A stretch of DNA of 64,000 nucleotides from a virus (lineage: Duplodnaviria > Caudoviricetes): IMG/VR virus record IMGVR_UViG_3300043427_002668; one strand, 5' to 3'. Position 1 is the stretch's first letter. Each line of letters opens with the position of its first letter. The notes under the pieces were generated by a model, which ran no database searches, had not been told where the DNA came from, and saw only the letters and a program-made list of their open reading frames with translations. A program made the position numbers and the translations under genes. Positions 10,700 to 38,029 of the stretch are shown one piece after another.

Positions 10700-10777
10700 T
10701 GTTTTGTTGGTTCGGAAGTCCTCTAACACTTCTGGTAATATACATAAGGCACTGTCTTATGCGTTTCCAACTTATAT

Positions 10778-10849
10778 GGGCTCATAGTTAAGCGGATATA
10801 ACCTTCGCCTTCTAAGCGAATGTCCCTGGTTCGATTCCAGGTGAGCCTG
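10778..10849 (+). tRNA. tRNA-Arg(TCT)
   Basis: Cloverleaf GGGCTCA/TGAGCCT; anticodon loop CT-TCT-AA; TTCGATT T-loop; no encoded CCA. Confidence 0.92.
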
Positions 10850-10933
10850 TTGGAGTTTATCTCCATATATAAAAGTAATAGAGAGTAAGTCTCTGTTATA
10901 TCCTTATGAGGTATATCACACTTACTCCATCTT

Positions 10934-11018
10934 GCCCGAATGGCGGAATTGGCAAACGCAATAGGTTTAGGTCCTATCGCCCTACGACGGCTTACAGGTT
11001 CAAATCCTGTTTCGGGCA
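10934..11018 (+). tRNA. tRNA-Leu(TAG)
   Basis: GCCCGAA/TTCGGGC; loop TT-TAG-GT; long variable arm. Confidence 0.92.
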
Positions 11019-11019
11019 C

Positions 11020-11048
11020 TTGACAATCAAACTCAAAAGGTTTATGAT
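11020..11048 (+). promoter_or_regulatory. sigma70 promoter inside the tRNA array
   Basis: TTGACA-17 nt-TATGAT, embedded in a GACAATCA/TGATTGTC inverted repeat. Confidence 0.65.
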
Positions 11049-11058
11049 TGTCTCATAA

Positions 11059-11129
11059 GCGGGTATAGTTTAGGGGTAAAATGCCATCCTTCCAAGTTGG
11101 AGTCACCGGTTCGATTCCGGTTACCCGCT
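11059..11129 (+). tRNA. tRNA-Gly(TCC)
   Basis: GCGGGTA/TACCCGC; loop CT-TCC-AA. Confidence 0.92.
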
Positions 11130-11149
11130 CTGAACCTTCGGGTTCTTAT

Positions 11150-11221
11150 TCCACAATGGCGCAGCGGTAGCGCAGAAGACTGTTAATCTTTTGGTCCCTG
11201 GTTCGAATCCAGGTTGTGGAG
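11150..11221 (+). tRNA. tRNA-Asn(GTT)
   Basis: TCCACAA/TTGTGGA; loop CT-GTT-AA. Confidence 0.93.
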
Positions 11222-11255
11222 TTGAAAGGGTTGGAAATGTCCGATTCTTTCATAT

Positions 11256-11453
11256 TGGTTCTGGGTGGAATTCCCAGCAGTTCCGTTAGGGACTGTCCTT
11301 TGTAGGTTCGATACCTACATCTTCCTTATGGGAGATAAGAACGGCTATTGGAAACCTTCGTAGGTGCCAAAACCTCTCCCCAGGTCGATGTTTAAACTGG
11401 TGCTTGGGTGAATGTAAAGAGTGGGGACATAGGTAAAGTCCCCAACACCTACC
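11256..11453 (+). ncRNA. ~200 nt multi-stem structured RNA, candidate manA RNA motif
   Basis: Four-hairpin junction closed by GTTCT/AGAAC, includes a T-loop, plus 3' pseudoknot. Size and tRNA adjacency fit the cyanophage manA motif; identity not verified. Confidence 0.5.
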
Positions 11454-11457
11454 ACAT

Positions 11458-11529
11458 CCTCTGGTAGTCTATTGGTAAGGACAGGCAGACAATGCACTTG
11501 GAAACTAGGTTCGATTCCTAGACAGAGGA
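11458..11529 (+). ncRNA. tRNA-like element with aberrant anticodon arm
   Basis: Acceptor, D and T arms are canonical; anticodon arm forms only a bulged stem with a 5-nt GACAA loop. Confidence 0.65.
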
Positions 11530-11535
11530 CCTTTT

Positions 11536-11608
11536 GCCCGATGACCCAGCTAGTGAAGGGACCTGCCTTACAAGCAGGCATCGGTAGGGGCGGAACCTAT
11601 ATCGGGCA
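11536..11608 (+). tRNA. tRNA-Val(TAC) with non-canonical T-loop
   Basis: GCCCGAT/ATCGGGC; loop CT-TAC-AA; T-loop GGCGGAA. Confidence 0.82.
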
Positions 11609-11638
11609 TACTTGATAAATAAATACAAAAAGAGTATA

Positions 11639-12073
11639 ATGGAAAAACTGTTTAAACTCTTAAGTGATGCTCAGTCATCACTTTTTGTTTTATTTCATAA
11701 AACTTGGGCGTTTCACTGGAATGTAGTTGGAGAAGATTTTACTCAACTACATCAACTCTTTGGCGGACAGTATGAAACGATGTTTGAAGAGATTGACAGA
11801 CTCTCCGAACATATGAGATACTTAAATGTAAAACCATTAAGTTCTCTTTCAAGAATGCTTGAGGTTACACAAATTAAAGAGGCAGCAAGTTCATCTGGAG
11901 CAAAAGATATGCTTCAAGAACTTCTGGATAATAACACTAAGTTTTGTGAGTTGATGGTAGAGATTTCGGAAGAAGCAGAGCAACAAAAGTCTTATGCAAC
12001 TGCTAATCTAGTTCAAGATTTAATGGAATCTCACGGTAAGTTTGTATGGCAATTAAGATCACATTTACAGTGA
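11639..12073 (+). CDS. dps: Dps family ferritin-like DNA-protecting protein
   Basis: HWNVVG..F..LH.LF..QY...IDRLSEHMR ferroxidase signature; C-terminal HGKFVWQLRS. Confidence 0.9.
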   Translation: MEKLFKLLSDAQSSLFVLFHKTWAFHWNVVGEDFTQLHQLFGGQYETMFEEIDRLSEHMRYLNVKPLSSLSRMLEVTQIKEAASSSGAKDMLQELLDNNTKFCELMVEISEEAEQQKSYATANLVQDLMESHGKFVWQLRSHLQ

Positions 12074-12088
12074 TGAGGATGAAGAACA

Positions 12089-12340
12089 ATGTTATCAATA
12101 AGATGCAAAGATTGTAATAGAGAACTAACAGGACACCACTCAAAAACAGTTACTTGTGGATGTCCGAATATGGCAACAATTCGTGGAGATAAGATTTCGG
12201 CACTTGACTTATCTCGCATTGTTATGCTAAACTCTTTAAAAGAAAATCAAAAAAAAGGTGTGCTGACTTCTCAAGATATTGCTTGGCAAGAAGCACGTCG
12301 CCAGCGTAAAGTTAGGCGTCTTGATTTTGAAGTTCGTTAA
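12089..12340 (+). CDS. small Zn-finger hypothetical protein
   Basis: CKDC...CGCPN motifs. Confidence 0.7.
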   Translation: MLSIRCKDCNRELTGHHSKTVTCGCPNMATIRGDKISALDLSRIVMLNSLKENQKKGVLTSQDIAWQEARRQRKVRRLDFEVR

Positions 12341-12352
12341 GAACTGAATATT

Positions 12353-12437
12353 GGAAAGGTGGTCGAGTGGTTGAAGGCTCCAGTCTTGAAAACTGGCGAT
12401 GTGAAAGCATCCGTGGGTTCGAATCCCACCCTTTCCG
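12353..12437 (+). tRNA. tRNA-Ser(TGA)
   Basis: GGAAAGG/CCTTTCC; loop CT-TGA-AA; long variable arm. Confidence 0.93.
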
Positions 12438-12549
12438 TTAAGAAGCATTAAAAATTTAAGATTCTCTTCAACAGTGTTACTCTTTGAACACAAATCGTTG
12501 ACGTTCAAAAGTCCAGAACTAGTATATAGTAGTAATACGAACTAGAAAA

Positions 12550-12699
12550 ATGGATCAACGCACCTATGATAATTGGGTGAAGATCAAAGAAACTTTTGAG
12601 GCTTCTGGTAACACTGATAATATGTTCTATAAAAGAGCAGTTGAGATAGTTAAAACCCGTAGAGATCCTCTTGCAAAATTTCTTGGAGATGAGAAGTGA
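12550..12699 (+). CDS. 49 aa hypothetical protein
   Basis: MDQRTYDNWVKIKETFEASGNTDNMFYKRAVEIVKTRRDPLAKFLGDEK read manually. Confidence 0.6.
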   Translation: MDQRTYDNWVKIKETFEASGNTDNMFYKRAVEIVKTRRDPLAKFLGDEK

Positions 12700-12899
12700 T
12701 GGAACCTCAAGACGAATTTATTACTCGTTCAGAAGTTCAGGAGATGATTGATGCAGCAATACGACGACACAACCGTAATGCTTCTATCATTAGTATGTGC
12801 GTCGGTTGGGTGGTTCTTGCTTTATTTGCTGAGGGACTACTGAGACTGATTGGTATTATTCCCCCACTCTTACCTTGGCTTAAGATCACGTTAAACTAA
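12699..12899 (+). CDS. small membrane protein
   Basis: ITRSEVQEMIDAAIRRHNRNAS followed by a TM helix. Confidence 0.7.
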   Translation: MEPQDEFITRSEVQEMIDAAIRRHNRNASIISMCVGWVVLALFAEGLLRLIGIIPPLLPWLKITLN

Positions 12900-13003
12900 T
12901 GTCAGAAGAAGATTTAGAAGAACTACTAAAAAGAGTTTTACAACAAAAGATGAATGAACTTTTTGAAGAACCTTCTACATACGAGGACGAAGACGATGAA
13001 TGA
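12899..13003 (+). CDS. 34 aa acidic peptide
   Basis: MSEEDLEELLKRVLQQKMNELFEEPSTYEDEDDE; overlaps both neighbours. Confidence 0.5.
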   Translation: MSEEDLEELLKRVLQQKMNELFEEPSTYEDEDDE

Positions 13004-13085
13004 CCGCATCTATACAGCACTCACAATCTTTGGTATAATAGGATTGTTAATCATTTGGTCCCTAGATCACGCATATATAAAATGA
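12996..13085 (+). CDS. 29 aa single-TM peptide
   Basis: MNDRIYTALTIFGIIGLLIIWSLDHAYIK. Confidence 0.5.
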   Translation: MNDRIYTALTIFGIIGLLIIWSLDHAYIK

Positions 13086-13198
13086 TTTTCCATATCGTAG
13101 AAGCACTCGCAGCAAATCCATTTTTTCTTTTTCTCTGCGGGTGCGGGTTGACAATCGTACCATTTGCTGGTATTATGTTTATACATAGAGACAAGTAA
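13082..13198 (+). CDS. 38 aa membrane peptide
   Basis: MIFHIVEALAANPFFLFLCGCGLTIVPFAGIMFIHRDK; ATGA overlap. Confidence 0.5.
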   Translation: MIFHIVEALAANPFFLFLCGCGLTIVPFAGIMFIHRDK

Positions 13199-13272
13199 CC
13201 GGGTTTAGCGCAGTTTGGTAGCGCATCTGCTTTGGGAGCAGAGGGTCGCAGGTTCGAATCCTGCAACTCGGA
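13199..13272 (+). tRNA. tRNA-Pro(TGG)
   Basis: CCGGGTT/AACTCGG; loop TT-TGG-GA. Confidence 0.92.
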
Positions 13273-13288
13273 CTCATAAAATCACTTT

Positions 13289-13522
13289 ATGAAAATGAAT
13301 CCAGAAATCGAAAAACTTCCATCCTTTACAATTGAAGAGTTTCAAGCAGATTTTGATAACCTTATGAATAGAGTAGAAAGCGGTGAGACACTACTCATCA
13401 AAAGTCAACACGGAAATGCAGTAATGGTTCCTTACAAAGAAGTGGTTAGTATATGTAACGAAGCAAATGTGGATCTTGAAGAGATAGTCAAGATTCACAC
13501 AGACCACGAAGAAGGGTCTTGA
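13289..13522 (+). CDS. Phd/YefM-like small protein (orphan antitoxin-like)
   Basis: FTIEEFQADFDNLMNRVESGETLLIKSQHGNAVMVP follows the Phd pattern; acidic tail. Confidence 0.45.
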   Translation: MKMNPEIEKLPSFTIEEFQADFDNLMNRVESGETLLIKSQHGNAVMVPYKEVVSICNEANVDLEEIVKIHTDHEEGS

Positions 13523-13547
13523 CAGAGCGTTCCAGGTCCGCTACTAT
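13519..13547 (+). promoter_or_regulatory. sigma70 promoter for tRNA-Ile
   Basis: TTGACA-17 nt-TACTAT. Confidence 0.7.
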
Positions 13548-13561
13548 AGATCTGGTCTTAA

Positions 13562-13633
13562 GGGACTGTCGCCTATGGGTTAAGGCCCACTGCTTATAAC
13601 GGTGTGAACTGAGTTCAAGTCTCAGCAGTCCTA
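13562..13633 (+). tRNA. tRNA-Ile(TAT)
   Basis: GGGACTG/CAGTCCT; loop CT-TAT-AA. Confidence 0.88.
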
Positions 13634-13635
13634 CT

Positions 13636-13783
13636 TTGCTTATCCATTTTGTAGTGGGTTTTTTAGGATAAGCAACAGAAAACCTACTTGAAAAAAGGAG
13701 AGTGAAAAACCCCAGCTGCAAGTCGGTGCGAAACAGACCTATGACTTGTATTGCGCTTCTGTTTCACTGTATGGATCTCTCCT
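13636..13783 (+). ncRNA. candidate structured RNA(s) between tRNA-Ile and the HNH gene
   Basis: 10-bp stem with pseudoknot potential (13636-13687), then nested stems AGGAGAG/CTCTCCT, GTGAAA/TTTCAC, TGCAAGTC/GACTTGTA. Confidence 0.5.
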
Positions 13784-13798
13784 CCAACATACATTTAT

Positions 13799-13806
13799 TA
13801 TAAATA
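13799..13806 (+). promoter_or_regulatory. T4-type late promoter TATAAATA inside an RBS-sequestering hairpin
   Basis: Exact consensus, flanked by ACATACAT/GTGTATGT. Confidence 0.7.
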
Positions 13807-13811
13807 GGTGT

Positions 13812-14252
13812 ATGTATACGTTCATAACCAAAATGATTATCTGTAAATCCTGCGGTAAAGAAGTTGAACAACATCCACGAAAAGGTGGAAGAGCAAAACT
13901 CTATTGTAATGAAACTTGCCGAATGAAATGGAGATATAGAAATGATCCTTGTGTTATGAACAGAAACACTTATACTGAACAAAAAGAACGTGCATATTCC
14001 AATAAATGGAAAGCACTTCAATATAAAGGTGCTAAGTGTCAAACTTGTGGTGAAGATAGGCCAGCAACTCTATGCTTTCATCATAGAGATCCTTCTCAAA
14101 AAGAATTAAAACTTGATGGAAGATCTTTTGCTAATAGGAAATGGGACACTATCAAAGAAGAAGTAGATAAATGTGATCTTCTTTGTCATAACTGCCATCA
14201 TATATTACATTATGGTGATAGTTGGGGAGAGTTTTTACAAACGCTGGTTTAG
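13812..14252 (+). CDS. HNH endonuclease (free-standing, in tRNA array)
   Basis: CQTCG...FHHRDP...KCDLLCHNCH; N-terminal CxxC/CxxxC; ATG 13812 follows an AGGTG SD; stop lies inside the tRNA-CAT gene. Confidence 0.85.
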   Translation: MYTFITKMIICKSCGKEVEQHPRKGGRAKLYCNETCRMKWRYRNDPCVMNRNTYTEQKERAYSNKWKALQYKGAKCQTCGEDRPATLCFHHRDPSQKELKLDGRSFANRKWDTIKEEVDKCDLLCHNCHHILHYGDSWGEFLQTLV

Positions 14253-14315
14253 CTCTCTGGCGAAAGCACTGCCCTCATAAGGCAAGATAGGTCGGTTCGA
14301 TCCCGACAACCAGCA
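14243..14315 (+). tRNA. tRNA-Met(CAT) (elongator Met or Ile2 not distinguishable by eye)
   Basis: GCTGGTT/AACCAGC; loop CT-CAT-AA. Confidence 0.85.
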
Positions 14316-34531: not shown

Positions 34532-34806
34532 TGAGTGCTAATATGTTGGGGCAGTTTGCTCTTGCCCTTGAAAAACTTGGATGGGATACCGATGATGAAC
34601 TTTCTGTTGAAATCGGTGGTGTAGCAGTAACTGGAACTGCAACTCATCCAGATGCTAATGCAAAGTGGGCGAAACCATTTGGGACAGTAACATATCAAAA
34701 TGATTCTTTCATTGTGATTAAAAATAAAACCAGAAGTCCTATGGTTTTCTCGCAACCTAATCCAGAACTTAAACAACAACATCCATATCAAGGAGAAAAC
34801 AAATGA
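34531..34806 (+). CDS. conserved cyanophage hypothetical protein
   Basis: 91 aa; coupled to its neighbours. Confidence 0.7.
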   Translation: MSANMLGQFALALEKLGWDTDDELSVEIGGVAVTGTATHPDANAKWAKPFGTVTYQNDSFIVIKNKTRSPMVFSQPNPELKQQHPYQGENK

Positions 34807-34922
34807 ATAAACTGTTTACTGATGCTGCTGAAAAACTGAATGGTCGTGCTGCGATGATTGGTTTCATTGCTGCTACCGCTTCTTATCTCACGACAGGTCA
34901 AATCATTCCTGGTGTATTCTGA
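34803..34922 (+). CDS. hli: high-light inducible protein (second copy, 39 aa)
   Basis: AEKLNGRAAMIGF...TGQIIPGVF; below the ORF-track cutoff. Confidence 0.9.
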   Translation: MNKLFTDAAEKLNGRAAMIGFIAATASYLTTGQIIPGVF

Positions 34923-34938
34923 TTACTAGATTTTAATT

Positions 34939-35514
34939 ATGTTTAATTTTTTCAATAAAAAAGAAGAAAATACTATGGAGGTTAAAATGCGTAGCGAAGG
35001 TTATCAAATTCCTCAAGTAGAATTTGTGTTCCGTGAGGCAGGTGAGTTTGTAACTCGCACTTCTTCCGAACTCTTCAACGGAAAGCGTGTTGTGATTTTC
35101 TCACTTCCTGGTGCATTCACTCCTACTTGCTCTGCATACCAACTCCCTGGTTTTGAAGAGAAGTTTGAGGAATTCAAAGCACTTGGTATTGATGAAATCT
35201 ATTGTATCTCTGTGAATGATGGTTTCGTGATGAACGCTTGGGCTCAAGACCAAAATATTCAAAACGTAAAACTGATTCCCGATGGAAATGCATACTTCAC
35301 CCGTTCGATGGGTATGCTCGTCCGTAAGTCAAATCTTGGCTTCGGTGAGCGCAGTTGGCGTTACGCTGCTGTGGTAGATAATGGTGTGATTGAGAAACTA
35401 TTTGTTGAAGCAGGTCAGCGTGATAATGCTGATACTGATCCTTATGAGGAAACAACTCCAACAGCAGTTCTGGATTATGTGAAATCTACAATTCTAGAAA
35501 AAGAACTTGTGTGA
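34939..35514 (+). CDS. type II peroxiredoxin
   Basis: FSLPGAFTPTCS, CISVND.FVM.AW, RSWRYA; start codon uncertain (34939/34972/34987). Confidence 0.92.
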   Translation: MFNFFNKKEENTMEVKMRSEGYQIPQVEFVFREAGEFVTRTSSELFNGKRVVIFSLPGAFTPTCSAYQLPGFEEKFEEFKALGIDEIYCISVNDGFVMNAWAQDQNIQNVKLIPDGNAYFTRSMGMLVRKSNLGFGERSWRYAAVVDNGVIEKLFVEAGQRDNADTDPYEETTPTAVLDYVKSTILEKELV

Positions 35515-35520
35515 TTTAGA

Positions 35521-35545
35521 AGGAGGGTTAAAACCCTCCTTTTTT
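35521..35545 (+). terminator. intrinsic terminator
   Basis: AGGAGGGTT/AACCCTCCT plus T-run. Confidence 0.75.
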
Positions 35546-35575
35546 AATAAATAAATTTACTGAATAGGTAAAGAT

Positions 35576-36277
35576 ATGAAAATAGATCTCCATAATTTCT
35601 TTTTACACTACGATCCTAAAAATCCAAAGCACGTTGCAGCAGTAGAGCAGTTTGAAAAGGATTTGGAATCTAAAAATCCAGACTTGCTTGATGATGAAAC
35701 GAGTTGGATAAAAATTTATAGATCAAAAGTAGAACCAGTAGTTCCAGGAGTTCTTAATGTTCCTTGGTTCCCACAAACAGATAATTACAGAGATGCACAA
35801 AGAACCTGTAATTCATCTTCTTGTGCGATGTGTCTAGAGTATTTCAAACCAGGCACACTTCAAGGAGCAACAGGCGATGATGCCTATATTCAAAAGGTAT
35901 TCGCAATTGGTGATACGACTGATCACACCGTCCAAACAAAAGTTTTGGAAGGTTATGGTATTAAGTCACGATTTGTTTACAATCTTTCTTTTGCTGATCT
36001 TGATCGTGAGCTTGCCGCTGGGAGACCTGTCGTTATCGGGATTCTTCATCGCGGTTCTTTATCTGCACCTACTGGCGGGCACTTACTTGTAGTGATCGGT
36101 AAGAAAGGTGATGATTATGTTGTAAATGATCCTTATGGTTCTCTCAACGATGGATATACGGGACCAGTTACAAATGGTAAAGGTGCTGTATATAAGAGAT
36201 CAGATCTAATGCAACGATGGTTGGATAAAGGAAAAGATAGAACTGGATGGGGTCGTATTTTTGATGCAAAAAAGTAA
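35576..36277 (+). CDS. C39-like cysteine peptidase (putative endolysin domain)
   Basis: QTDN...CNSSSCAM, GGHLLVVIG, NDPYG (Cys-His-Asp). Confidence 0.85.
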   Translation: MKIDLHNFFLHYDPKNPKHVAAVEQFEKDLESKNPDLLDDETSWIKIYRSKVEPVVPGVLNVPWFPQTDNYRDAQRTCNSSSCAMCLEYFKPGTLQGATGDDAYIQKVFAIGDTTDHTVQTKVLEGYGIKSRFVYNLSFADLDRELAAGRPVVIGILHRGSLSAPTGGHLLVVIGKKGDDYVVNDPYGSLNDGYTGPVTNGKGAVYKRSDLMQRWLDKGKDRTGWGRIFDAKK

Positions 36278-36308
36278 TTAGTTCTATTCCAGTTAAAGGG
36301 GTAGAACT
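36268..36308 (+). promoter_or_regulatory. putative programmed -1 ribosomal frameshift signal
   Basis: In-frame A-AAA-AAG heptamer, 5-nt spacer, then 11-bp hairpin AGTTCTATTCC/GGGGTAGAACT. Confidence 0.7.
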
Positions 36309-36747
36309 GATAAAAGTATTTGAAGGTTGTAAATTAAGAGCATATCCAGATCCTTTGACTGGAGGTGCTCCAATCACAATAGGTTGGGGTTCTACTAGCA
36401 GAAAAGATGGAACTGGATTTATAATGGGTAATACCATTACACAACAGGAAGCAGATGATCTGTTAATGTTTGATATTGAAACAAAATTTATTCCTGCACT
36501 ACAAAAAATCCCTTATTGGAATGAGATGAATGAAAATCAACAAGGAGCACTTCTTTCTTTTGCTTATAATCTTGGTGCTAATTTCTACGGGGGTCCCAAT
36601 TTTAATACCATAACTAGAGTATTAAAGAATAAGGAATGGGATAAAGTTCCTGATGCTTTATATCTTTACCGAAATCCTGGAAGTAATGTAGAGGCAGGAT
36701 TAGCAAGAAGAAGAAAAGCAGAGGGTGATCTTTGGAAAAGAACTTAA
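36271..36747 (+). CDS. GH24 (phage lysozyme) domain with no in-frame ATG upstream of its catalytic Glu; probably made as a fusion
   Basis: LIKVFEGCKLRAYPDPLTGGAPITIGWG (E/D/T triad; Glu at 36322), LLSFAYNLG, GLARRRKAE. The ORF-track start at 36355 omits the Glu. Confidence 0.8.
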   Translation, partial: KVISSIPVKGVELIKVFEGCKLRAYPDPLTGGAPITIGWGSTSRKDGTGFIMGNTITQQEADDLLMFDIETKFIPALQKIPYWNEMNENQQGALLSFAYNLGANFYGGPNFNTITRVLKNKEWDKVPDALYLYRNPGSNVEAGLARRRKAEGDLWKRT

Positions 36748-36784
36748 AATAAATAACAATAGACTTTATTGAGGTGTTATTATT

Positions 36785-38029
36785 ATGGATGAATTTCAAC
36801 TTGAAGAACTGCAAAAGTCAAATCAGCAAATACAGGATACTATCCCTTATGATCCTAATGCTGCATCTAGGTATCCTAATGGATATACACCTGTAGGAAT
36901 TGGTGAAGATAATACTCCAGTCGAACAGGTTGATCCTGTAAACGTTCCTGAAGTAGAAGTAACATCTCCAATATTAAACGACATTATTCCTCAGGACGTT
37001 TATGGGTCTTCTGGGGACAATATTTCCTTTGCGAATAGAAATATTCCAGAGATTGAAAATACAAGAATAGATTCAACAACTCCTATAAGAAACGCAAATG
37101 TCGTTATTAGCAGTTTACCTGGGAATAATATTGTTCCTGATAGTTCTAGCAATAGTGATGGACCACCTATCGAAGAAGATGTGGTAGATCCTCCAGTTGA
37201 TCCAGAGCCTCCTGTAGACCCCCCAGTTGATCCTGAAGATCCACCACCACCTCCACCACCTGAAGAACCTGAAGATCCAGAGGAACCTGAAGAACCTGAA
37301 GAACCTGAAGATCCAGAGGAACCTGAAGAACCTGAAGAACCTGAAGATCCAGAGGAACCAGAGGAACCAGAAGATCCTGAAGATCCTGAAGATCCAGAGG
37401 AACCTGAAGAACCTGAAGATCCAGAGGAACCTGAAGATCCAGAGGAACCTGAAGAACCTGAAGATCCAGAGGAACCTGAAGAACCTGAAGATCCAGAGGA
37501 ACCTGGTGGGGGTAATCCTGGTAATGATAAAGATGTAGGCAATTCCCCTTGGGATGGTGAGACAGGAGCATCAGACAATCCAGGCAAAGGTAATCACCAA
37601 GATGGACAAGATCCCGAACCAAACCAACCTCCAGGCGATTCAAAGAATGATGGAGGACAAAATAATGATCCAAAAGATCCTCCTGGTAATGGAGGAAATG
37701 CTGGAAATGGTGGAGGAAAACCTGATGAACAGCAAAATAATGGATGGGGGAACGGAGATGATGATGCTCCAGGTAATTCCCTCAATCACAATAACGCTGA
37801 AAATGATCAGTCTCCAAGTGAACATTATGATGATTTTGTTGGAAGATTCTTAGAAGAAAATCCAGTAGATCTAAATGTTATTAATACTCACGAAATTCCT
37901 AACGAGCATCCTCTTGATAATTTTGATACTCATATTCCTGATGTTGTATTAGATAATCTCCCAGAGGTTCACTTCGATCACTTTGATCTTCCTACAGATC
38001 ATTTCGATCACGGACCTCATAGTATGTAA
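36785..38029 (+). CDS. acidic Pro/Glu-repeat low-complexity protein
   Basis: 414 aa; (PEE/PED)n tract; Gly/Asn/Asp-rich NNGWGNGD region. Confidence 0.75.
   Translation: MDEFQLEELQKSNQQIQDTIPYDPNAASRYPNGYTPVGIGEDNTPVEQVDPVNVPEVEVTSPILNDIIPQDVYGSSGDNISFANRNIPEIENTRIDSTTPIRNANVVISSLPGNNIVPDSSSNSDGPPIEEDVVDPPVDPEPPVDPPVDPEDPPPPPPPEEPEDPEEPEEPEEPEDPEEPEEPEEPEDPEEPEEPEDPEDPEDPEEPEEPEDPEEPEDPEEPEEPEDPEEPEEPEDPEEPGGGNPGNDKDVGNSPWDGETGASDNPGKGNHQDGQDPEPNQPPGDSKNDGGQNNDPKDPPGNGGNAGNGGGKPDEQQNNGWGNGDDDAPGNSLNHNNAENDQSPSEHYDDFVGRFLEENPVDLNVINTHEIPNEHPLDNFDTHIPDVVLDNLPEVHFDHFDLPTDHFDHGPHSM
37259..37504 (+). repeat. coding tandem repeat of 9-nt units
   Basis: Mixture of CCTGAAGAA, CCTGAAGAT and CCAGAGGAA units, often as a 27-nt superunit. 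Confidence 0.95.

Follow-up and report, generated by a model that had tools for sequence, protein, structure and literature searches.

A putative programmed −1 ribosomal frameshift site between a C39-like peptidase and a start-less lysozyme in T4-like cyanophages

T4-like cyanophages kill many marine and freshwater picocyanobacteria, and their lysis genes are poorly understood. Here we ask how one such phage could express a lysozyme whose reading frame has no start codon. The window that we analyzed is a stretch of 64,000 nucleotides (nt) from IMG/VR virus record IMGVR_UViG_3300043427_002668, which belongs to a freshwater T4-like cyanophage, is 115 kb long and is estimated to be 58% complete. 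On the plus strand, which carries all features of the locus, an open reading frame (ORF) of 233 amino acids (aa) for a peptidase (35576-36277) ends in TTT GAT GCA AAA AAG TAA (...FDAKK-TAA), and the coding part of the −1 frame (36274-36747) comprises 157 aa and a stop codon, with the linker VISSIPVKG followed by a GH24 T4-type lysozyme. The lysozyme frame is closed upstream by a TGA at 36262-36264 and is open from 36265 to the TAA at 36745-36747; no ATG, GTG or TTG in it precedes the catalytic Glu codon (36322-36324), and the first such codon, a TTG at 36355, already lies past that residue. An ATT stands in the lysozyme frame at 36277-36279, and the nearby ATG at 36264 belongs to the third frame, which is shut by a TAG at 36279. 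A first-pass annotation of this DNA had described these frames and boundaries and had read them as a programmed −1 frameshift; the coordinates and the translation agree with that description, and comparison with related loci supports the interpretation. We put the probability that the locus is a genuine programmed −1 ribosomal frameshift site, of the classical bacterial dnaX/insertion sequence (IS) type, at roughly 0.85.

The two domains are readily recognized, and Pfam confirms the identities first proposed for them. The peptidase ORF consists of a helical N-terminal domain of ~50 aa followed by a C39-like papain-fold cysteine peptidase, and matches Peptidase_C39_2 (PF13529) over the entire profile (positions 1-143 of 143, E-value 4.4e-13, 50.5 bits with the cut-off at 24). 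The 233-aa product was modeled with AlphaFold (predicted local distance difference test score, pLDDT, 79), and the model shows the N-terminal helical module and then a papain-like core. The module covers aa 1-51 (35576-35728, MKIDLHNFF...WIKIYRSK), with helices at residues 17-33 and 43-50 in the model. The closest match in the PDB is the C39-like peptidase 3erv (E 1.6e-5), and further structural matches include the peptidase domains of PCAT and ComA, a primitive phytochelatin synthase, and the pseudomurein endoisopeptidase PeiR, which is a cell-wall peptidase. Residues C78, C83, H158, H169, and D185 are invariant in 34 homologues, and the catalytic pair is presumably found among these Cys and His residues. 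The −1 frame matches Phage_lysozyme (PF00959) at positions 2-125 of 125 (1.2e-22, 81 bits against a cut-off of 22.3) and is the sole match to this family in the 115-kb record. The motifs FEG...AYPD...TIGWG are legible in its translation, and we take their residues, from what is known of the family, to correspond to the Glu-Asp-Thr triad of T4 lysozyme.

The end of the peptidase gene carries a slippery heptamer, A_AAA_AAG (36268-36274), which lies in the peptidase frame in the X_XXY_YYZ phase and is followed immediately by the zero-frame stop TAA (36275-36277). A hairpin occupies 36277-36311, with a 14-base-pair (bp) stem (36277-36290 paired with 36298-36311, including three G-U pairs) and a 7-nt loop. 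The 11-bp core of this stem (36280-36290 with 36298-36308), separated from the heptamer by the 5-nt spacer TAATT, is the hairpin of the first-pass annotation, and folding extends it to the 14 bp given here. Its energy, computed with ViennaRNA, is −17.1 kcal/mol, compared with −4.9 ± 2.0 kcal/mol for shuffled sequences (z = −5.98), and none of the 200 shuffles was as stable. A Shine-Dalgarno (SD)-like GGGGT read from the sequence at 36249-36253, 14 nt 5' of the heptamer as first reported, is a possible 5' stimulator.

From these elements the following course of translation can be proposed. The majority of ribosomes would stop at the TAA at 36275 and release the 233-aa protein of N-terminal module and C39-like peptidase, while the hairpin at 36277-36311, standing at the mRNA entrance, would make a fraction of them pause on A_AAA_AAG. 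Slippage could then take two routes. In the first, the ribosome would be holding AAA in its P site and AAG in its A site, and both tRNA-Lys would re-pair at −1 in tandem; in the second, AAG would already have moved to the P site, the slowly decoded stop codon would occupy the A site, and the P-site tRNA alone would slip back. Both routes would yield the identical protein, ...A-K-K-V-I-S-S.... From there the ribosome would read the linker VISSIPVKG and then the lysozyme in the −1 frame, giving a 390-aa protein of N-terminal module, peptidase and muramidase with the junction ...IFDAKK-VISSIPVKGVELIKVFEG; the predicted products of 233 and 390 aa are of the sizes claimed at the outset. Lacking a start of its own, the lysozyme would be expressed through frameshifting alone, and the shift would determine in what ratio the two proteins are made. 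We infer the shifting itself, its efficiency, and the role of the fusion as the peptidoglycan-degrading lysin of the phage from this arrangement; the existence of both proteins and a set ratio between them are likewise deduced, and the fusion is presumably an endolysin rather than a lysin borne on the virion.

The proposal was examined in a census of related junctions, which drew on isolates and on three IMG/VR scans, each queried with one peptidase (that of the window, of S-CAM7 or of S-PM2). The census used the 80 best relatives per query, out of ~400 in IMG/VR. Both domains could be placed at 160 loci, of which 146 have the lysozyme in the −1 frame, and collapsing identical junctions left 112 distinct ones. 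An in-frame heptamer, with neither an ATG in the linker nor an ATG, GTG or TTG overlapping the stop, is present in 72 of the 112; a further 14 combine the heptamer with a possible start, 13 have no heptamer, 11 are in-frame fusions, one is a reversed fusion, and one falls outside these classes. The heptamer is in phase in every one of the 72 start-less junctions, among them those of the isolates S-PM2 and S-CAM7, and the recurrence of the arrangement in 72 distinct junctions is far more than chance would produce.

The heptamer is AAAAAAG in 70 of the 72, and TTTTTTT (U_UUU_UUU) in the remaining two, S-CAM7 and its relative L089. All 70 A-type junctions spell the two Lys codons AAA AAG, synonymous variants being absent; before these stands GCA, GTA, ATA, ACA or GAA, so that the residue varies and the third base is A throughout. 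Such a pattern points to selection on the A-type heptamer at the nucleotide level. A zero-frame stop abuts the heptamer in 66 of the 72 junctions (over all 72, the stop is TAG in 64, TAA in seven, and TGA in one), and this near-universal stop directly behind the slippery sequence suggests that the P-site route contributes to the shift. Altered heptamers, AAA AAA in L159 and GCA AAG in L180, are confined to loci that provide the lysozyme with an ATG or GTG of its own. All 13 heptamer-free junctions supply such an ATG or GTG, which overlaps the peptidase stop in 12; the exception is DSL-LC03, with a separate lysozyme ATG ~100 nt downstream. A start codon that overlaps the upstream stop is the classical arrangement for translational coupling. 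In about two-thirds of the unique heptamer junctions that were checked, no ATG, GTG or TTG occurs anywhere before the catalytic Glu.

The hairpin was compared by an alignment-free script that records the longest uninterrupted helix whose 5' arm begins 0-10 nt past the heptamer. The 72 frameshift-type junctions have a median score of 10, and 89% of them score at least 8, against a median of 5.5 and 5.8% for 2880 random anchors in the same genes; the 13 heptamer-free junctions have a median of 4.5 and a maximum of 6.5, so that none reaches 8. The helix starts 2-8 nt past the heptamer in 69 of the 72. At least seven unrelated stem families occur (AGTTCTATTCC, GACATCACA, AATCAACACCACA, GCCAACTAAC, ATCTCCCCG, CACCAATCG, and GTAGAACC, each with its complement). 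The 3' arm consists of the codons of the first conserved lysozyme residues (G-V-E-L, C-G-V or L-V-G) and the 5' arm of the linker, which is not conserved otherwise and evidently changes so as to fit the 3' arm. The relatives whose lysozyme has its own start, which the first-pass annotation had singled out as a check on its proposal, turned out to differ in kind: the 13 without a heptamer are also without a hairpin, as are the heptamer-keeping junctions with an overlapping ATG in S-SRM01, L146, and L159.

Paired bases were counted inside two stem families, because the unrelated stems, whose loops measure 5-39 nt, are beyond what MAFFT can bring into one global alignment. In the stem family of the window (19 sequences, 12 pairs), five of the 12 pairs have changed on both sides, in 17 cells, and 86% of cells are paired, compared with 31-54% when the partner is slid; the observed covariation score was reached in none of 500 shuffles, a count which, given the kinship among the sequences, is not to be taken as a probability. 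In the CAACACCACA family (16 sequences, 14 pairs), double changes occur in four of the 14 pairs, and pairing holds in 99% of cells. Both the control with a slid partner and the occurrence of unrelated stem families favor a conserved hairpin. The heptamer conserved, the hairpin covarying and the lysozyme in the −1 frame are what the homologue comparison suggested by the first-pass annotation had anticipated.

The CAACACCACA family shows a further feature. The bases of its loop (..ATCCCTCA.., as many as 14 nt in L016) can pair with the FEG codons that follow downstream (TTGAGGGAT), which corresponds to the topology of an H-type pseudoknot and is found in L014, L016 (2133-2212), L063, L009, L120, L127, and ~15 more. 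The loop-to-downstream pairing in this clade is significant against shuffled loops, with 97% of cells paired, and no double substitutions were found in it. In the window itself, this pseudoknot pairing is absent.

Several observations weigh against a frameshift and have to be set beside this evidence. Certain relatives with an ATG for the lysozyme and no hairpin (S-SRM01 and L146) retain the heptamer as well, so that its conservation may partly reflect ancestry or a preference for ...AKK. In six junctions with a TGA stop, which belong to the 14 and lie outside the 72, a GTG or TTG arises that overlaps the stop and could be used as a start. The 72 junctions are mutually related, so that their counts are not independent events, and eight of the 72 have short uninterrupted helices, some of them being bulged stems that escape the helix measure. 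The GGGGT falls in invariant Gly-Trp-Gly-Arg codons that are also found in non-frameshifting relatives; the conservation of the GGGG is uninformative about a stimulatory role, because it is dictated by the conserved Trp-Gly codons. Efficient shifting on A_AAA_AAG by picocyanobacterial ribosomes is an assumption of the proposal, which for every member of the family is drawn from sequence comparison.

The alternative that survives best, although we regard it as improbable, is that the lysozyme is translated independently, by reinitiation after the peptidase stop or from a non-canonical start such as the ATT at 36277, and that no fusion is made. The peptidase stop does overlap the beginning of the open −1 frame, much as in the coupled ATGA relatives, the ATT at 36277-36279 is in frame in the window, and TGA-stop junctions generate an overlapping GTG. 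However, the ATT is not conserved, the usual junction reading AAA AAA GTA GAA where the window has ATT, and the 72 distinct junctions offer neither an ATG in the linker nor an ATG, GTG or TTG overlapping the stop. Reinitiation would leave unexplained the strict choice of AAA AAG, the conserved third-base A, and the covarying hairpin, which would moreover bury the supposed start region. A fused protein also appears to be viable, because in-frame fusions (ACG-2014f and relatives) and variants with seven A residues exist. A promoter of its own for the lysozyme and a T4-type late promoter were considered as well and rejected: the scan found no σ70 promoter between the peptidase and lysozyme ORFs, and the exact T4-type late sequence TATAAATA shows no enrichment in the window and does not occur 5' of the peptidase.

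Transcriptional slippage, in which RNA polymerase would stutter on the A6 run (T8 in S-CAM7) and add one A to some of the mRNAs, appears slightly less probable still, and is nevertheless the main rival for an experiment to exclude, above all for the T8 of S-CAM7. The site is a homopolymer, a single additional A would produce precisely the frame of the fusion, and DNA with A7 at this place occurs; the T8 of S-CAM7 is near the length of known slippage sites such as those of the IS and dnaX genes of Thermus. On the other hand, the bacterial runs known to give appreciable slippage measure ~8-9 residues or more, and the window and 70 of the 72 junctions have A6 followed by G. Three features that slippage by the polymerase does not require, namely the X_XXY_YYZ phase, the terminal G and a hairpin 5 nt further on, are all conserved.

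An artefact or decay, that is, a homopolymer error in a truly fused gene or a lysozyme pseudogene, is effectively refuted: the frame break does lie inside a homopolymer run and two A7 contigs do read as in-frame fusions, but the A6 junction is gap-free in independent assemblies, the site is identical in re-sequenced isolates, the lysozyme frame is intact in ~70 diverged junctions, and neither an error nor decay would yield a covarying hairpin. Four independent metagenome studies provide contigs across the junction, which carry 0-11 substitutions and no gap, and a 99%-identical IMG/VR contig has the same A6 junction. The site is identical in two independent sequences of S-PM2, and likewise in two S-CAM7 isolates. 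Sequencing error, which the first-pass annotation had asked to be checked, is excluded by these data, with no indel found at the junction. The raw-read run X23 yielded no reads on the window. The lysozymes of the diverged junctions share 64-78% protein identity with that of the window, and their catalytic motif is of the FEG type, with FED, FEK or FEH in some. The two exceptional contigs, L170 and L192 (junctions at ~2180-2290), have A7 instead of A6 (...AAAAAAAGTAG...), retain the hairpin, and encode in-frame fusions whose junction is precisely the ...KKVE... predicted; their A7 may reflect a genuine insertion of one base or an assembly error in the homopolymer. A contig from a riverine metatranscriptome (X19) covers 36332-36509, inside the lysozyme, over 178 nt with four differences, which hints that the lysozyme region of a close relative is present in RNA and is not proof of transcription; no RNA contig across the junction was found in three RNA-labelled runs.

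In the isolated relatives, the same two domains are arranged in five ways. A blastn search of phage records found the locus in Synechococcus phages only. S-PM2 has GCA AAA AAG TAA as in the window, a start-less lysozyme in the −1 frame, and the hairpin, whose arms AGCTCTAC / GTAGAGCT are one compensated pair apart from the AGTTCTAC / GTAGAACT of the window. S-CAM7 has the slippery run GTT TTT TTT, a 5-nt spacer, and a perfect 8-bp hairpin (GTAGAACC / GGTTCTAC), and its lysozyme is likewise start-less and in the −1 frame. In GenBank, the lysozymes of these two phages are fragments of 73 aa (S-PM2p157, L002:1557-1775) and 90 aa (L006:1342-1614), respectively; both are C-terminal pieces that begin at internal start codons and leave out the catalytic Glu region. 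The "putative lysin" of S-PM2 has been carried as the 73-aa fragment since 2005, its start not having been found, and none of the records examined is annotated with a ribosomal-slippage join. In S-SRM01, the AAAAAAG is kept, the lysozyme ATG overlaps the peptidase stop (ATGA), and no hairpin is present (z +1.1). ACG-2014f encodes a single in-frame peptidase-lysozyme fusion of 405 aa with the linker ...GWGRTFQAKVTAKKSEEGKLPSAGVELIKEFEG, and S-CREM1 a reversed fusion, with the lysozyme N-terminal and the C39 peptidase C-terminal (L003:559-1740).

In DSL-LC02 and DSL-LC03, the peptidase and the lysozyme are two separate genes, and the lysozymes are headed by a copy of the N-terminal ~50-aa module of the peptidase (L004:1252-1400 and L005:1440-1590). 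The module of the window and the N-terminus of the DSL-LC03 lysozyme are 48% identical over 50 aa (BLASTP, E 7e-13). Since separate lysozymes also bring this module along, it seems to be required in cis by both catalytic domains; targeting or binding would be guesses at its function. By tblastn, the peptidase also underlies genes annotated as "lysozyme" or "endolysin" in cyanopodoviruses and cyanosiphoviruses, and a peptidase-muramidase lysin thus seems, from these matches, to be common in cyanophages.

A quick tree, midpoint-rooted only, was used to view the distribution of these solutions. The frameshift type pervades a main clade of 101 rows, and own-start junctions are nested at several places in it, where the starred branches force at least five changes. 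L170 and L192 appear inside the main clade as in-frame fusions with one extra A relative to their neighbors. The U_UUU_UUU site of S-CAM7 lies inside a marine clade of in-frame fusions, and L089, which also has U_UUU_UUU with a 5-nt spacer and an 8-bp hairpin, is likewise found among fusions. The distribution in this tree suggests that the solutions have been exchanged repeatedly and that a frameshift site arose on two separate occasions.

Beyond the shift itself, it is possible, though doubtful, that frameshifting sets the stoichiometry of a two-component lysin, either as a hetero-oligomer whose subunits share the first 233 residues or as a means of timing lysis with a fixed, low dose of muramidase. 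On that view the ratio itself would be under selection, given that the arrangement seems to have arisen at least twice, with two slippery sequences, and to have been exchanged repeatedly with coupled or fused solutions. Endolysins of phages of Gram-positive bacteria obtain a free C-terminal domain from an internal start, and the cyanophage hetero-oligomer would be the mirror image of this.

The signal resembles several known systems, with differences in what the shift produces. In E. coli dnaX, which encodes tau and gamma, the −1 shift occurs on A_AAA_AAG with an upstream SD and a downstream stem-loop; E. coli is not known to have a tRNA-Lys with the anticodon CUU. The window shares with dnaX the identical heptamer, the stem-loop a few nucleotides on, a 5' G-run that is SD-like in sequence, and, as predicted, two products at a fixed ratio. 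However, the shifted frame of dnaX stops almost at once, so that shifting makes the shorter protein, whereas in the window it is the zero frame that stops at once, the stop abuts the heptamer, and the shift would add a catalytic domain. The IS3-family elements IS911, IS150, and IS3 use A_AAA_AAG or A_AAA_G with a hairpin or pseudoknot to make OrfA and OrfAB. As proposed for the window, a −1 shift near the end of the upstream ORF fuses a start-less catalytic ORF to it, and the stimulator is a hairpin or a pseudoknot according to the member, while in the cyanophage family one clade has the loop-to-downstream complementarity. The IS3 product is a transposase instead of a lysis enzyme, and there is no sequence relationship. 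In the case of Bacillus subtilis cdd, the −1 shift takes place at CGA AAG beside the stop, with an SD-like element ~14 nt upstream; both the Lys codon directly before the zero-frame stop and the distance of the SD-like element recall the window, but the cdd extension is short and has no known function, and no stimulatory hairpin is known. Among the cyanophages, the fusion of ACG-2014f and the reversed fusion of S-CREM1 contain the same two catalytic domains and the N-terminal module, and the linker ...GWGRTFQAKVTAKKSEEGKLPSAGVELIKEFEG of the former parallels the predicted trans-frame junction of the window; unlike the window, each is one ordinary ORF that gives the fusion product only and no free peptidase.

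Phage frameshifts described so far are mostly of other kinds. The tail chaperone G/GT and T7 10A/10B capsid frameshifts, which are discussed in PMC10885494, are also conserved in tailed phages and give a short and a long product from overlapping ORFs; they concern structural or assembly proteins with a non-enzyme extension, use heptamers such as G_GGA_AAG, and often lack a strong structure. For Alteromonas virus vB_AspP-H4/4, a genome announcement (PMC5658483) predicts a slippery sequence and a −1 shift that joins the endolysin to the next ORF (genes 39/40). In contrast to the window, the endolysin is there the upstream, normally started gene and the downstream ORF an internal virion protein, and the prediction concerns one genome of an unrelated family (a podovirus) without comparative support. 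The PRFect paper (PMC10885494) also cites a lactococcal study (Shearman et al. 1994) for a lysin gene "known to contain a frameshift". Full-text literature searches, whose reach did not extend to the 1994 lactococcal lysin study, found no description of a peptidase-lysozyme frameshift, and they found no proteomic report of the trans-frame protein. On these comparisons the signal is of the textbook dnaX/IS3 type, and the gene context appears to be new, with a lytic enzyme as the downstream and apparently wholly shift-dependent partner.

If the proposal is true, the real lysin of these phages is a protein of ~390 aa with two activities that annotation pipelines have systematically missed, and a lytic enzyme joins the classes of phage frameshift genes, so far mostly tail chaperones and capsid proteins. 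The family, which holds frameshift junctions, coupled genes, in-frame fusions, a reversed fusion, and the duplicated N-terminal module, forms a natural series on the product ratio, and its many natural stem variants can serve directly as mutagenesis data on a −1 frameshift stimulator.

The surroundings of the locus are as follows. Upstream, 34803-35546 contains an hli (high-light-inducible) gene and a peroxiredoxin-like gene. The sequence GGAGGG-ttaaaa-CCCTCC followed by T6 at 35522-35545 has by eye the look of an intrinsic terminator, and a terminator scan of 35300-36900 reported none. We remark only that AATAAATA sequences occur at ~35547 and 36750. Farther upstream, nine phage tRNAs lie at 10777-14315 (Arg-TCT, Leu-TAG, Gly-TCC, Asn-GTT, His-ATG, Ser-TGA, Pro-TGG, Ile-TAT, and Met-CAT), with no tRNA-Lys among these nine of the window; the call of an ATG anticodon for His is unusual. 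The gene that follows the lysozyme (36785-38029) encodes an extremely acidic protein of 414 aa with long Pro/Glu/Asp repeats (PEEPEEPEDPEE...) and a Gly/Asn/Asp-rich tail, and its homologue at the same position in DSL-LC03 is annotated as autotransporter-like.

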